Assembly (NCBI GenBank): GCA_964523565.1
Contig: CAZGAK010000002.1
Location: 13,961-77,960 of the forward strand
DNA length: 64,000 nt
Reading direction: 5' to 3'
DNA from: an uncultured Syntrophaceae bacterium
GTDB taxonomy: Bacteria > Desulfobacterota > Syntrophia > Syntrophales > UBA6807
The notes beneath the pieces were generated by a model. That model saw only the letters and a program-made list of their open reading frames with translations, was not told the origin of the DNA and ran no database searches. This document shows positions 30,361-39,604 of the stretch, piece by piece. The position numbers were made by a program, and so were the translations under genes. The stretch's first letter is position 1, and every line of letters begins with the position of its first letter.

Positions 30361-32331
30361 TTAAAAATCATACCTCAGACCGAGAAAGAACATTCTTCCC
30401 GGCATGGGATAGCCCTGAGCGTATTCATAATCTTCACCAAAGAGGTTTTGAATCTTCCCTTTCAGAGTAACACTTCCGTATTTTTCAGCATCTAAAATCT
30501 TCTTGCTGACAGTCAGATTGGCCACAGTAAAACTGCCTTTTGTTATTGTCCCATAAGTACCGCCTTCATAATCAGTAATATCCTGTTTCCCCGCATAAGC
30601 AAGGTTCAGGTTGGCGGAAAAACCGCCAAGGTCGGAGACCGTGATGCCATAAGACACATTGAGATCCGATGTGTACTTGAGGTCTTCATTTGTTTCCTTA
30701 TCCTTGTATTTGGTGAGACAGGTAAAACTAACGTAGGGCTTGACCTGATAATCCCATGAGAAGAGTGAGCCTATATCATAGGAAATACTCCCTTCAAATC
30801 CCTCAATTTCAGCTTTCCCGAGATTTCTGTATGATGTGTCGCCACCACCAGTTGTATAGGTCTCAATTTTGTCCTTGAAATCGGTATGAAAATAGGTAAG
30901 CCCGGCGTTGAAGGAAGCGTATGAAAAGTCCAGACCTCCTTCAGAGGTCTCGCTCTTCTCAGGTTTCAAATTGGGATTGCCCACGTAATGCACACCCCAC
31001 ATATTCATATCGCAGGCCAGCTGCTGTGCCGTGGGCATCCTGAACGCCTCCCCGTAGTTAGCCCTCAGCTTTAACCAGTCTGTAAGTAGATAGGCCGCGC
31101 CGATCCGTGGAGATGTGTGGTCGTCACTCTCTTTTCCCCCGTCACTCTTCATGTCCACTTCATATTCGTCATATCGCACGCCGCCGGTGATTATAATCTT
31201 CTGATCAAAAAGCCTGGCCTTGGCCAGGAGAAAACCGGCTGGATTGTCATATTCAGTATTACTTGGACTGTATTCGCTATCTTTAGTCTCATAATTCACC
31301 CAGTCGAAACCCGCAGTGAGAAGGAGATACTTCTGGTTATAAGAGACCTGTGCCTGGGTTCCCTTATAATCGGCTGATACCTTATCTGGTATACCATTAT
31401 CCCAGGAGTCAGGATTGCTCGCAACGGGGTCAAAGTATTCATCCTCATCTTTGCCATCAAAATATCTGACCTTCCAGGAAAAGAGACCGTTACCGGTTTC
31501 CCCGTCATAGATAAAATCAACCGATTTATTACCGTTGTTGCTGTAGTCATCGCGATCGTTCTGACTCAGGTAGCCCGGATTACCCGCATGATCAACATCA
31601 AAGTAAGTGTAAATGACACCGATACGATTCCCGGGCAGGAACTCATATCCGAGATTCAGGCTGCCGTTCTTTTTATGATTATAAGCTGTGTTGTAAAACC
31701 TTGCGCCACTTCCAGTGTTATAATCATCTCTGGAATCGCTGGTAAAACTGCCGGAAAAATCAAACGCCTTATACTTGCCTGAAAATCCTGCGCTCCCCTC
31801 CTTATAGTCGTAGCTTCCCAGAAGTCCCTCAACAAAGGCGGTCGGTTTCTCCTTCCCCTGTTTTGTGATCACGTTTACGACTCCGCCCATGGCTGCCGAA
31901 CCGTACTGAACAGAGGCAGGTCCTCTTATTACCTCCACCCTCTCTATGTTTTTGGTCATAATCTTGGCCGTATTACCGGTCCCGGCTCTCCGGCCGTTCA
32001 GCAGGATAAGCACTTTGCCCGCAAGGTCAACGCCGGTGGCATCCGTTCTGAAACCACGTATGCCGACAGATGTTGAAGTACCCGGATATTTATGGATGTG
32101 CCCGATACCCTTTTCAGCAAGCAAATCTCCCAGATCCGTTGCTGAAGAATTTTTGATTTCATCTTGATCAATGATGGTTACATTGGTGGTAATCTCTTTT
32201 TTCTTTTCTTCTACCCTGCCTGCGGTTACCACCACCTCTTCCATTATTGTCGAATCGCTCCCTTCCTGTGCATAGACAGGAATAGATGAAGCAACAAACA
32301 AACATGCAAAAAATATTATCAACTTCTTCAT
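30361..32331 (-). CDS. btuB: TonB-dependent receptor, BtuB-like
   Basis: Signal peptide, TonB box EEVVVTA, plug (ILLNGR, IERVEVIRGPASVQYGS-AMGGVVNVITK), C-terminal LGLRYDF; downstream of a cobalamin riboswitch. Confidence 0.9.
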   Translation of the reverse strand: MKKLIIFFACLFVASSIPVYAQEGSDSTIMEEVVVTAGRVEEKKKEITTNVTIIDQDEIKNSSATDLGDLLAEKGIGHIHKYPGTSTSVGIRGFRTDATGVDLAGKVLILLNGRRAGTGNTAKIMTKNIERVEVIRGPASVQYGSAAMGGVVNVITKQGKEKPTAFVEGLLGSYDYKEGSAGFSGKYKAFDFSGSFTSDSRDDYNTGSGARFYNTAYNHKKNGSLNLGYEFLPGNRIGVIYTYFDVDHAGNPGYLSQNDRDDYSNNGNKSVDFIYDGETGNGLFSWKVRYFDGKDEDEYFDPVASNPDSWDNGIPDKVSADYKGTQAQVSYNQKYLLLTAGFDWVNYETKDSEYSPSNTEYDNPAGFLLAKARLFDQKIIITGGVRYDEYEVDMKSDGGKESDDHTSPRIGAAYLLTDWLKLRANYGEAFRMPTAQQLACDMNMWGVHYVGNPNLKPEKSETSEGGLDFSYASFNAGLTYFHTDFKDKIETYTTGGGDTSYRNLGKAEIEGFEGSISYDIGSLFSWDYQVKPYVSFTCLTKYKDKETNEDLKYTSDLNVSYGITVSDLGGFSANLNLAYAGKQDITDYEGGTYGTITKGSFTVANLTVSKKILDAEKYGSVTLKGKIQNLFGEDYEYAQGYPMPGRMFFLGLRYDF

Positions 32332-32515
32332 TTTTTAGTTCCTCCTTATGATTTGTGATGTTTGATTTACTTAAATTTTTGCTGCGTTATCACATTCATA
32401 AGGGTGGGGCTTTGTTCTCTTTTTTCCTCACAATAACCTCCTTTCCCCTCCGTCGGGAATGTTATTTTAGTGTCTGAACGAAAACTCATGGTTTTCTTTC
32501 GACACTGTTTTATCC

Positions 32516-32661
32516 GTCAGATAAGTCTCCTGGCTCGCGGCAACGCCTACTCTCCACGCCTTCCCAACCCCCTTTTCAGGGAATCAGTGGCATTGCGTGA
32601 ATTTCGTTCCGCCTACAGTTGCGGGGCAGCACCGGCCTTTGACCGGTTTCCTTGATCTGAC
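32516..32661 (-). promoter_or_regulatory. Cobalamin riboswitch 1
   Basis: Minus strand GTCAGAT..AGGAAACCGGTCAAAGGCCGGTGCTGCCCCGCAACTGT..GCCACTG..GGGAAGG..GAGCCAGGAGAC..ATCTGAC (B12 box, P1 pairing). Confidence 0.95.
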
Positions 32662-32686
32662 AGATTGAAAGCGTTCAGATTGAGCA

Positions 32687-32709
32687 GCAGGGCTAAAGCC
32701 CTGCCCTAC
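32687..32709 (-). repeat. Single GTAG REP overlapping the ABC ATPase stop
   Basis: Minus strand GTAGGGCAGGGCTTTAGCCCTGC; its TAG is the stop at 32706-32708. Confidence 0.7.
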
Positions 32710-37931: not shown

Positions 37932-39089
37932 CTATGCAGCGAATCGTGACCCCAGCCAGAGAACGATTCCCGCTATTCCTGCACAGATTTCAACCGGCAG
38001 CGCCCAGCGCATTTCTTTTTTAACACCTGAAAGCGACGTGTACGTCGATGCTCCGGTGAAGTTCATTGCCAGATACATTGTAATGGAAGTAACGAGAAAA
38101 AACCATGCCACAGACTCAAGTTGTCCGGGCCGGATTGCCATATCGGATCTCCTGATCAGGACGAGAATAAGTGCCGTTGGAAGTCCGAGCCAGAGCCCTT
38201 TTATAGCAAAGGCGCGTCCCGGAAGAAAGGGCAAAAGTATGGGAGTAAGAATCGTACCTGCAAGTATGGCACTCATAATTGCTGCGGTGGTGGATGCACC
38301 GTAGTTCAGGACATTATCCCAGTATCCGCCAGGCCCTCCCAGACCGCCGAGGAGAAATGCTATGGGAATAATGAAAACTGCCGCCTTCAAAGCTTCGACG
38401 AGTTCCACCGGTATCAGAACCGTTCGTTCCATAAGTGTAAATGTTTGAATTCGCATTTCGGGTGTTGCTCTGCAGCCGGCATCTAAATAGGCTGGAAGAT
38501 CATGAGCTCTGACCGGTCCGTAGCTAACCTTGAAACCTGAATATTTCCTGACCAGATGAGCGGCGACTCCAGGTCCCGCCAGTTGGGGAAGTATAATATT
38601 TCTGTGACTGACAATTTGAGAGATGCCGCTGTTTATTATTCTTTCGACAAGTTCGGTTGTGCCGAAAGTGCCCTTGCCGGCGGCACACCATACATTTATT
38701 CCTTTCGTATCAAGTACGAGAATCCAGGCATCTCGGTCCCGGAGGGATTCTCTCAGGCGATCAAAACTCATTTTGTAGTTAGCGCTTGCCAGTACCGGTG
38801 AGTTTTCATCCGGATTGCCAAGGGCATATAAACCAGGATCAACGGTATAATACATTCTTCCGACACCCCAGCGAGCCCTTATTGTACCCCAATGGTCCCT
38901 CCATTTAAGAGACGTAGAAATCTGTGGGATATAAGTCACAGCGGTTTTAACAGAACCCGAGACAAACGGTTGATCCGGACTTGGCAGGCTCACCTGAGCC
39001 TCGCATGAGGACGATCACATATATGAAGAAAGAGGGATTTCTCTGTCATTTCCCATTTCACTTTTATAAATTTGAAGGTCTTTTTGCAT
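37932..39089 (-). CDS. hgcA: Mercury methylation corrinoid protein HgcA; probable Sec-containing N-terminal extension (track start 38993 is the shorter alternative)
   Basis: NYKMSFD, cap helix GINVWCAAGKGTFG, GPVRA-DLPAYL, C-terminal TM helices, MNFTGASTYTSLSGVKKEM. The frame extends 32 codons upstream to ATG 39089 with one TGA at 39015-39017. Confidence 0.95.
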
Positions 39090-39111
39090 TTTTACATAAA
39101 TCCTTTGTCTT

Positions 39112-39570
39112 TTATCGGCATTGACATGATGAGAGATTCTGCACGGCCTCGACAAACAATTTTAGATTGTCGTACACATCGCCCCGTCTTTCTTCAGGAA
39201 TCCCCTCGTTGATGGTTTTAATAAATCCCACGACGCAGGACTGGACTTTTCCATGGGTCTCTTTCCCTTTATCTTTTAATGTCAGATTAACTGCCCTTTG
39301 ATCCTTTTTCGATTTTTCTCGCTGAACCAGCCCCTTTTTGATCAGAGGATTGAGCAATCGCGTCGTTGTGCTTTTATCAACGGCAAGAATCCGGTGAAGA
39401 TCTGCCAACTGTAACTCCCCTTTTTCTTCTATGGCATCGAGAACGAAAAACTGGGTAAGCGTTATATCTTCACAGAGCACGGAGTCCCGTCGGCAGAATC
39501 TCACGGCTTTGCAGAGATCAGATAATAGAAAAAGCACTTCCTTATTAGTTGCGATATCTCCCGTATTCAT
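39112..39570 (-). CDS. Cys-rich MarR-family regulator heading the hgcAB operon
   Basis: ITLTQFFVL, LAVDKSTTTRLLNPLIKKGLVQR, DQRAVNLTL; Cys in LCKAVRFCRRDSVLC and C-terminal SCQC; ATG 39570. Confidence 0.9.
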   Translation of the reverse strand: MNTGDIATNKEVLFLLSDLCKAVRFCRRDSVLCEDITLTQFFVLDAIEEKGELQLADLHRILAVDKSTTTRLLNPLIKKGLVQREKSKKDQRAVNLTLKDKGKETHGKVQSCVVGFIKTINEGIPEERRGDVYDNLKLFVEAVQNLSSCQCR

Positions 39571-39571
39571 G

Positions 39572-39604
39572 GTTGTAATATACAACTAATTTTCGATTTG
39601 TCAA
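39572..39604 (-). promoter_or_regulatory. Sigma70 promoter with overlapping palindromic operator for marR-hgcAB
   Basis: TTGACA (39599-39604), 16 nt spacer, TATATT (39577-39582), 6 nt, ATG; perfect IR GTTGTA-N3-TACAAC at 39572-39586. Confidence 0.75.

Follow-up and report, generated by a model that had tools for sequence, protein, structure and literature searches.

Mercury-methylation genes next to a B12 salvage locus in a predicted corrinoid-auxotrophic Syntrophales bacterium: a probable lineage-specific juxtaposition

Mercury methylation involves the membrane protein HgcA, which works only with a corrinoid, and the limits on natural methylmercury formation are poorly understood; among the carriers of hgcA in anoxic freshwater, the Syntrophales form a common guild. 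Here we describe a stretch of 64,000 nucleotides (hereafter the window) on contig C2 of a metagenome-assembled genome (MAG), G000, in which the genes marR-hgcA-hgcB are followed, after four further genes on the same strand, by a riboswitch-controlled locus for the import and salvage of corrinoids (the B12 locus). The whole is probably best explained by a corrinoid-auxotrophic carrier of hgcAB, in which the adjacency to the B12 genes arose by lineage-specific recombination and forms no functional unit. The organism is a member of the Syntrophales (Thermodesulfobacteriota), and its genome (2.34 Mb in 99 contigs, completeness 96.8%, contamination 2.2%) was assembled from anoxic lake water; the stretch is represented in public metagenomes and metatranscriptomes of lake water, and the relatives of its HgcA from named records are nearly all Syntrophales or other Thermodesulfobacteriota. 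No report of the linkage, or of auxotrophy in hgcA-carrying Syntrophales, was found in the literature searchable.

Results

A complete hgcAB pair in a genome lacking corrin ring synthesis

HgcA scored 460 bits against the equivalog model NF040863 (cut-off 275) and HgcB 118.2 bits against NF040864 (cut-off 99), whereas the model for fusion-type HgcA, NF043039, gave 195 bits, below its cut-off of 285. The cap helix N(V/I)WCA(A/G)GK, which holds the Co-ligating Cys, is present as NVWCAAGK (residues 100-107 of the 353-aa form), and the C-terminal half of the protein is hydrophobic, with Kyte-Doolittle segments at residues 191-223, 235-259, 261-281 and 330-349; four transmembrane helices are clear at the strict threshold, where five are expected. 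HgcB contains CX2CX2CX3C motifs at residues 20 and 51 and the C-terminus ...ARCC, and its start lies 14 nt past the hgcA stop. Judged by the family cut-offs, the hgcAB pair is complete and genuine, and its products would be expected to methylate mercury. The description of the organism as a probable mercury methylator, given in an earlier note on the same DNA, is backed by these scores and by the transcription of hgcAB in situ (see below). Directly upstream, the marR-family gene is preceded by the only strong promoter-like site predicted in the region, and a marR homologue lies approximately 140 nt upstream of hgcA in 30 of 100 hgcA loci compared, in agreement with the putative regulator that precedes hgcAB in 112 genomes (McDaniel et al. 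2020, PMC7438021).

The earlier note had also called for a check of de novo cbi genes elsewhere in the genome. Throughout the genome, only two TP_methylase matches (open frames of 506 and 331 aa) were detected, where the ring pathway, with its methyltransferases CbiL, CbiH, CbiF and CbiE, needs at least five; neither CbiC nor CbiB (CobD_CbiB) was found, and the sole GATase_3 match is weak (33 bits) and lies in a 193-aa frame, such that neither CbiA nor CbiP can be recognised. In an order-wide comparison of 61 Syntrophales species genomes (one genome per species), CbiC was present in exactly the ten genomes with at least five TP_methylase matches, and the two markers therefore agree perfectly. 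Two closed hgcA-positive genomes, G015 and G048, likewise have no ring pathway, indicating that its absence is not merely a gap of the MAG. On this gene content, the organism cannot build the corrin ring. With no ring synthesis encoded genome-wide, HgcA must be loaded with imported corrinoid, and methylation would need corrinoid made by other organisms. The proposal that methylation may depend on external cobamides thus holds in so far as the auxotrophy is genome-wide, but not in its derivation from the neighbourhood of the B12 genes, from which the dependence does not follow.

This dependence is neither confined to HgcA nor special to this genome. The genome has 11 other matches to B12-binding domains, one of which is a radical SAM gene in the window (43772-45274), so that HgcA is one of at least a dozen consumers of what the B12 locus delivers. 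Ring synthesis is absent from 51 of the 61 Syntrophales species genomes, including 18 of the 23 hgcA carriers, which suggests that external corrinoid dependence is common in the order. An enrichment of corrinoid producers among hgcA carriers was looked for and not found (5/23 carriers versus 5/38 non-carriers, Fisher p = 0.48, no association). The absence of a ring pathway here fits the finding that cobamides are used by most bacteria but made by only 37% of them; among cobamide-dependent processes, the same study lists mercury methylation merely as a rare one (Shelton et al. 2019, PMC6461909).

The adjacency is not conserved

For the locus comparison, 100 hgcA loci (99 others and this one) were collected, 50 of them with 4 kb or more of sequence downstream, and the window proteins (btuC, btuB and cobO products and others) were searched against the 99 other loci by tblastn. 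None of the 50 flanked loci has btuC, btuB or cobO near hgcA, and only marR recurs beside it (30 loci); an ArsP-like gene is found in three and cutA in none of the 99 other loci. Conserved synteny of hgcAB with B12 genes was ruled out by this search. Within the order, a cobalamin riboswitch is linked to hgcA in none of the 21 other hgcA-positive Syntrophales that have one: every riboswitch is either on a different contig or separated from hgcA by no less than 137 kb (minimum distances: G032, 137 kb; G048, 161 kb; G015, 412 kb; G033, 417 kb).

Genomes more closely related to G000 point in the same direction from the side of the B12 genes. G005, from another genus of the same family and without hgcA, carries on one contig the order tonB-exbD-exbB-btuF-cobC-cobS-cobT-cobU-Dph6-like-AsnS-like-cobO-btuB-btuD-btuC-polyferredoxin, at 45-85% aa identity to G000; since G005 has the locus without hgcA, the family must have inherited its B12 genes from an ancestor, independently of hgcAB. 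G008, likewise from another genus of the family and also without hgcA, has the btu/cobO/PP-loop part on a shorter contig. G001, which belongs to the same genus and whose shared parts are 92-96% identical in nucleotides, has no hgcAB, but retains btuCD, the two riboswitches and the polyferredoxin gene at 94% nucleotide identity. Indeed, hgcA above the cut-off occurs in 23 of the 61 Syntrophales genomes, and in the family of the window in this genome only. A frame in another member of the family, G002 (G002:C90:16351-17034), resembles HgcA with 164.6 bits (cut-off 275; model positions 31-275); it may encode a paralogue or, alternatively, a protein of the fused HgcAB type.

In the HgcA tree, the sister of the window's protein (78% identity, support 100/100) is found in G047, a genome of another family. 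In that genome, a terminator-like hairpin and a tRNA gene come after hgcB, btuCD-btuB-cobO are found on a separate contig, and no hgc genes were found in the 4.9 kb fetched upstream of btuC. A join between the hgcAB contig and the riboswitch contig of G047 was considered and ruled out by the tRNA gene after hgcB and the separate btu contig. Families f7 and f8 each group together in the tree and f15 does so only partly (G060 falls outside), a topology with which both a transfer of hgcAB within the order and its loss from the rest of family f1 would be compatible.

How the present order arose is indicated by the sequence immediately downstream of hgcB. In G001, the selenoprotein gene that follows hgcB in G000 is preceded by an intact arsR (locus L103, G001:C384, 239-625) with an endonuclease III gene (nth) beyond it, and on the contig with arsP the next genes are a small Cys-rich one and one for a cupin. 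In G000, a relic of approximately 30 nt from the 3' end of arsR is left directly upstream of the selenoprotein gene (about 37480-37511), and no arsR orthologue was found in the G000 genome. Homology between the two genomes starts within the last arsR codons (approximately 37511, just below the hgcB stop) and ends exactly at the arsP stop codon (approximately 35561). The relic identifies the gene order of G000 as derived and marks a recombination breakpoint. The stretch from approximately 35.5 to 42.5 kb, which holds the ArsR-type metal cassette, a transposase associated with repetitive extragenic palindromes (REP) and repeats, differs throughout between G000 and G001, and the contigs of G001, G002 and G005 end no more than approximately 400 nt ahead of the polyferredoxin gene, which is what a junction that varies between strains should produce.

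These comparisons do not support the view of the earlier note that the co-location of hgcAB with its cofactor supply is meaningful: the B12 locus is kept without hgcA, the adjacency does not recur, and the test of synteny across relatives that the note had proposed gave no linkage in the same-genus genome, in the genome with the sister HgcA, in the 21 Syntrophales or in the 50 flanked loci. The note had itself named uniqueness to this contig, with no expression link, as grounds for abandoning that view, and this is essentially what was found, as no relative shares the arrangement and no RNA contig bridges into btuC (see below). We infer that the juxtaposition is without selective meaning.

Transcription and the metal cassette

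According to the RNA contigs, transcripts of hgcAB and of the btu genes occur in situ, in the same metatranscriptomes. The hgcA contigs match at 100% identity, and one of them (37773-38023) spans hgcA and hgcB. The four genes between hgcB and riboswitch 1 encode a HesB/IscA-family selenoprotein, CutA, an ArsP-HMA fusion and a polyferredoxin. The earlier note had placed five co-oriented genes here; the orientation is correct (all on the minus strand), but the number is four, the fifth being due to a plain open reading frame call that splits the selenoprotein gene at its in-frame TGA. The polyferredoxin gene adjoins riboswitch and btuC in G005 (69% aa identity), G001 (95% aa) and G002 (72% nucleotide) and is the first gene of the synteny block common to the relatives; by this synteny it belongs to the B12 locus and not to the hgcAB side.

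It is conceivable that the functional partners of hgcAB at this locus are the metal genes (HesB/IscA selenoprotein, CutA and ArsP-HMA), forming a metal or metalloid operon with which the B12 neighbourhood is only incidentally associated. Among the RNA contigs, 36434-37686 runs from the 3' end of hgcB through the selenoprotein gene and cutA into arsP, and 35246-36044 from arsP into the polyferredoxin gene. Genes related to arsenic and regulators of the ArsR type often flank hgcAB (McDaniel et al. 2020, PMC7438021), and gene neighbourhoods concerned with organometallics repeatedly contain selenoproteins and exporters of the ArsP/SO_0444 type (Haft and Gwadz 2022, bioRxiv 10.1101/2022.07.06.499078). 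We nevertheless regard such an operon as unlikely. G001 has the cassette without hgcAB, behind its own arsR and at another chromosomal site, and of the 99 other hgcA loci only three have an ArsP-like gene nearby and none has cutA. Moreover, RNA depth rises approximately three-fold at about 37500-37690, where contig 5' ends also fall, which suggests a promoter of the cassette's own inside or just after hgcB. As a separate observation, the selenoprotein-cutA-arsP cassette is the best represented part of the region in RNA (36021-37600; runs X10, X13, X16 and X19), with a depth of 5-10 compared to 1-3 for hgcAB and the btu genes.

Further downstream, RNA depth falls from approximately 9 to approximately 2 before riboswitch 1, and the RNA contigs of this part are short and separate, with none extending from the polyferredoxin gene to btuC; read-through from polyferredoxin to btuC was not borne out by them. 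The two riboswitches place the btu genes under their own control downstream of the hgcAB transcripts and, given their position downstream of hgcAB, corrinoid level cannot control hgcAB through them.

Weighing a selected linkage

Another explanation is that the linkage has been selected, with hgcAB and the genes of corrinoid uptake and salvage forming a supply-demand cluster that is co-inherited or transferred together, or is partly co-transcribed, such that apo-HgcA would be made only when its cofactor can be imported. Only 2.65 kb on the same strand separate hgcB from riboswitch 1, with no strong terminator predicted in between; the sole two cobalamin riboswitches of the genome are located here; the organism is, on its gene content, a corrinoid auxotroph; and the metatranscriptomes with hgcAB transcripts also contain those of the btu genes. 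Selection for the linkage is nonetheless improbable, considering its absence from the 50 flanked loci, from the 21 hgcA-positive Syntrophales with a riboswitch and from the sister-HgcA and same-genus genomes, and the persistence of an unchanged B12 locus without hgcA. In addition, four unrelated genes and the arsR relic lie in between, the riboswitches act downstream of hgcAB and cannot regulate it, and at least 11 other proteins use the product of the locus.

Several points weigh against our preferred reading, a recombination without functional meaning in a corrinoid auxotroph. The adjacency is tight and co-oriented with no predicted terminator, as described above, and transcription may to some extent continue past the polyferredoxin gene into the leader of the riboswitch. 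Logan contigs, in which RNA was assessed, lose rare variants and reflect expression poorly. The DNA and RNA runs covering more than 90% of the stretch may share one lake system, perhaps the source sample itself, and the linkage might be kept among close strains outside the one-genome-per-species sample. Finally, corrin genes usually cluster, and at a completeness of 96.8% all of them could in principle be missing together with one contig that was not assembled.

The join is physically real

DNA linkage was checked in unitigs of runs X1, X2, X4 and X9. A single unitig, covering 37432-40000 in X1, X2 and X4 and 37406-39926 in X9, crosses the junction between hgcB and the selenoprotein gene, and a second one (34867-36473 in X1, X2 and X4) crosses that between arsP and the polyferredoxin gene, with even depth (16-18x in X1 and 24-26x in X4). 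A chimera of assembly or binning, joining an hgcAB contig to a B12 locus from a different population, has next to no probability (the earlier note had named an assembly chimera as a ground for refutation): the genome is indeed a 99-contig MAG with 2.2% contamination, unitigs break at 34867-34889, 36452-36473, 37266-37295 and 37406-37460 with loose ends that indicate related strains, and the contigs of the relatives all end just upstream of the polyferredoxin gene, but each junction that is new relative to G001 lies inside a single unitig of uniform depth, both are crossed by DNA unitigs in X1, X2 and X4 (the first also in X9) and by the two independent RNA contigs 36434-37686 and 35246-36044, and the joint of polyferredoxin, riboswitch and btuC is continuous in G001, G002 and G005.

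The B12 import and salvage locus

The layout given in the earlier note, from the hgcAB side into riboswitch-btuCD, riboswitch-btuB-cobO and, past an island, cobUTSC-btuF-tonB, was recovered in full on the minus strand (Table 1). Both riboswitches are full-length matches to RF00174 (model positions 1-189), located upstream of btuC and btuB, respectively, and a search of the whole genome gave just these two. CobU, CobT, CobS and CobO exceed their equivalog cut-offs (CobU, NF004469, 203.5 bits versus 161; CobT, TIGR03160, 463 versus 319; CobS, TIGR00317, 129 versus 110), and CobC falls just short of its own (TIGR03162, 155.9 versus 162.9). The transporter proteins score below the B12-specific equivalog cut-offs of NCBIfam, BtuB reaching 186 bits against TIGR01779 (cut-off 599.7), BtuC 324 against NF007081 (cut-off 461) and BtuD 285 against NF007082 (cut-off 537); the best NCBIfam matches of the btuC and btuD products are BtuC and a corrinoid ABC ATPase, respectively. 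BtuB, BtuC and BtuD represent a TonB-dependent receptor and a FecCD-type importer, for which a role in corrinoid uptake is suggested by the riboswitches and by cobO and cobUTSC nearby. As far as family assignment can tell, the gene set is that of a cobinamide/cobalamin salvager of the E. coli type.

Table 1 Features of the hgcAB region and the B12 locus in the window
Feature	Coordinates	Strand	Evidence	Remarks
IS200-like Y1 transposase (RAYT-like)	40667-41362			close to hgcAB
Promoter-like site of marR	39604-39577	minus	TTGACA-16-TATATT, 11/12 matches	
marR-family regulator	39112-39585	minus	PF01047, E 1e-15	directly upstream of hgcA
hgcA, corrinoid membrane protein of mercury methylation	37932-38993 as called; 37932-39089 probable	minus	NF040863	GTG start 38993, 353 aa as called
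hgcB, 2x[4Fe-4S] ferredoxin partner of HgcA	37589-37918	minus	NF040864	
HesB/IscA-family selenoprotein gene (GGG-U-AGP)	37148-37459	minus	NF038090, 110.4 bits vs 85	TGA read as selenocysteine
cutA, divalent-cation tolerance protein	36816-37172	minus	PF03091, E 4e-36	
arsP, ArsP_1 permease + HMA domain fusion	35561-36835	minus	NF033936, 347.8 bits vs 300; PF03773 + PF00403	SO_0444-type efflux transporter
Polyferredoxin gene	35040-35462	minus	Fer4 families	four Fe-S cluster motifs
Cobalamin riboswitch 1	34765-34935	minus	RF00174, 74.6 bits, gathering score 31.5	controls btuCD
btuC, ABC permease for corrinoid import	33507-34535	minus	PF01032, E 1e-95	
btuD, ABC ATPase for corrinoid import	32706-33503	minus	PF00005	
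Cobalamin riboswitch 2	32503-32719	minus	RF00174, 84.1 bits	controls btuB-cobO and two PP-loop genes
TonB-dependent outer-membrane receptor gene	30361-32331	minus	Plug + beta-barrel domains	btuB by context
cobO, corrinoid adenosyltransferase	29771-30286	minus	TIGR00708, 178.7 bits vs 167.75	
Asn-synthase-like PP-loop gene	28831-29769	minus	PF00733	
Dph6-like PP-loop gene	28157-28846	minus	PF01902	
Defence-type island, 10.7 kb	17461-28156	minus	Pfam/NCBIfam	radC, Gp49/HTH (helix-turn-helix) toxin-antitoxin pair, two YhcG nucleases, type III mod + res, one hypothetical
cobU, cobT, cobS, cobC, btuF, exbB, exbD, tonB	11487-17460	minus	NF004469, TIGR03160, TIGR00317, TIGR03162, PF01497, PF02472, PF03544	

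The defence-type island separates the Dph6-like gene from cobU in G000. In G005 these two genes are only approximately 840 nt apart on one contig, which runs on without the island, indicating that the island is an insertion that split the ancestral B12 locus. The two PP-loop genes after cobO are part of the conserved arrangement, the order cobO/AsnS-like/Dph6-like being kept in G005, G008, G001 and G002; the Asn-synthase-like one is without a glutaminase domain. Members of both the Asn-synthase-like and the Dph6-like families amidate carboxylates through adenylation, and it is conceivable that the two genes act in the repair or finishing of salvaged corrinoids.

The receptor gene looks like a cassette that has been exchanged. 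On either side of it, btuCD and cobO of G000 and G001 show a nucleotide identity of approximately 94%, whereas the receptors share 29-43% aa identity; the receptor loci compared in G001 and G047 were L107 (G001:C184) and L109 (G047:C35). A receptor of the G000 type is present in G005 and G008, from another genus, at 83-86% identity.

Mobile and repeated elements were observed elsewhere in the window. More than 60 copies of a repeat unit of approximately 140 nt are spread over the contigs of the genome, and a second element of approximately 140 nt and a 27-nt REP-like word are common to members of the family, with repeat sites in the window at 54915-55054, 41663-41804 and 49404-49430. Group II intron RNA domains are found at 60387-61148 (RF02005, 78.8 bits; RF00029, 50.2 bits).

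The start of hgcA and a probable selenocysteine

The called start of hgcA is probably wrong. An in-frame TGA (39015-39017) lies eight codons upstream of the called GTG, and the upstream in-frame translation reads MQKDLQIYKSEMGNDREIPLSSYM-U-SSSCEAQ-VSLPS..., suggesting that the true start is at 39089 and that the TGA is read through to give a selenoprotein form of HgcA with 385 aa. TGA occurs at the same alignment position in most related hgcA loci, 9-10 residues ahead of the conserved AQVSLP, and a selenocysteine tRNA (tRNA-Sec) is encoded in the genome. The candidate for a selenocysteine insertion sequence (SECIS) after the hgcA TGA, with a GGCUC/GAGCC stem and an AGGU loop, has a folding energy no better than that of shuffled sequence (z -0.87).

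With its in-frame TGA the gene resembles those of most HgcA, in which an in-frame TGA in the N-terminal extension has been described, usually within a Cys-Sec dipeptide (Haft and Gwadz 2022, bioRxiv 10.1101/2022.07.06.499078). Unlike the usual Cys of this CU motif in known hgcAB, the residue before the presumed selenocysteine is Met, Thr or Gln in the clade of G000, G047 and G054, Met being that of G000, where a Cys is found four residues past it (USSSC).

Discussion

Based on the comparisons described above, we propose that hgcAB belongs to a standard three-gene unit, marR-hgcA-hgcB, which would be transcribed from its own upstream region and would provide a HgcA that probably contains selenocysteine. 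Corrinoids would be imported through the riboswitch-controlled BtuB receptor with TonB-ExbBD and through BtuFCD, finished by CobU, CobT, CobS and CobC, and subsequently adenosylated by CobO, such that a single B12 locus may supply every corrinoid enzyme of the cell, HgcA included. The btu genes are expected to respond to corrinoid level via their own riboswitches. It is likely that hgcAB came to stand beside this locus through lineage-specific recombination in the variable stretch of approximately 35.5-42.5 kb, and that hgcAB and the B12 genes have neither co-evolved nor become co-regulated.

All parts of this region are of known kinds, and it is their juxtaposition that is lineage-specific. 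The NVWCAAGK cap helix of HgcA, followed by a two-cluster ferredoxin ending in CC, resembles the hgcAB of Pseudodesulfovibrio mercurii ND132 and Geobacter sulfurreducens PCA (Parks et al. 2013), and the small regulator gene directly upstream of hgcA has its counterpart in the hgcAB loci of McDaniel et al. (2020, PMC7438021). What sets this locus apart from all others examined is the metal cassette and then the B12 locus downstream of hgcB. An ArsR-like regulator is said to occur in ND132, according to work of Gionfriddo and co-workers from 2023. The ArsP permease and the arsR-derived sequence directly downstream of hgcB also recall the ArsR-linked metal genes beside hgcAB (McDaniel et al. 2020, Fig. 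6), except that arsR is here a relic of approximately 30 nt and that the cassette is independent of hgcAB in the sister species.

The B12 locus resembles the salvage regulons of B12 auxotrophs, for which E. coli and Salmonella provide examples, with RF00174 riboswitches before the transporters, a TonB-ExbBD receptor, a BtuFCD-type importer, CobU/T/S/C, CobO/BtuR and no ring pathway. Riboswitch-controlled B12 salvage regulons were reportedly the subject of comparative work by Rodionov and co-workers in 2003. Unlike the E. coli and Salmonella systems, the genes form one string here, which was ancestrally contiguous and is now split by the island; two PP-loop genes are included in the riboswitch-2 operon and a polyferredoxin gene stands upstream. 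The transporter proteins also differ from strict B12 transporters in falling below the B12-specific NCBIfam cut-offs.

A more far-reaching view would combine two claims, namely that the methylmercury output of the Syntrophales is gated by the amount and kind of corrinoid released by the community, and that the linkage of hgcAB and B12 genes is kept by selection, for instance as one inherited or transferred block; taken together, these are improbable. The adjacency adds nothing to an argument about corrinoid cross-feeding, because it is the rearrangement of one lineage. That argument is carried by the genome itself, a clean example of an hgcA carrier that, on its gene content, is forced to obtain its corrinoid from other organisms, and by the counts across the order, from which it is predicted that corrinoid cross-feeding can constrain mercury methylation by this guild.

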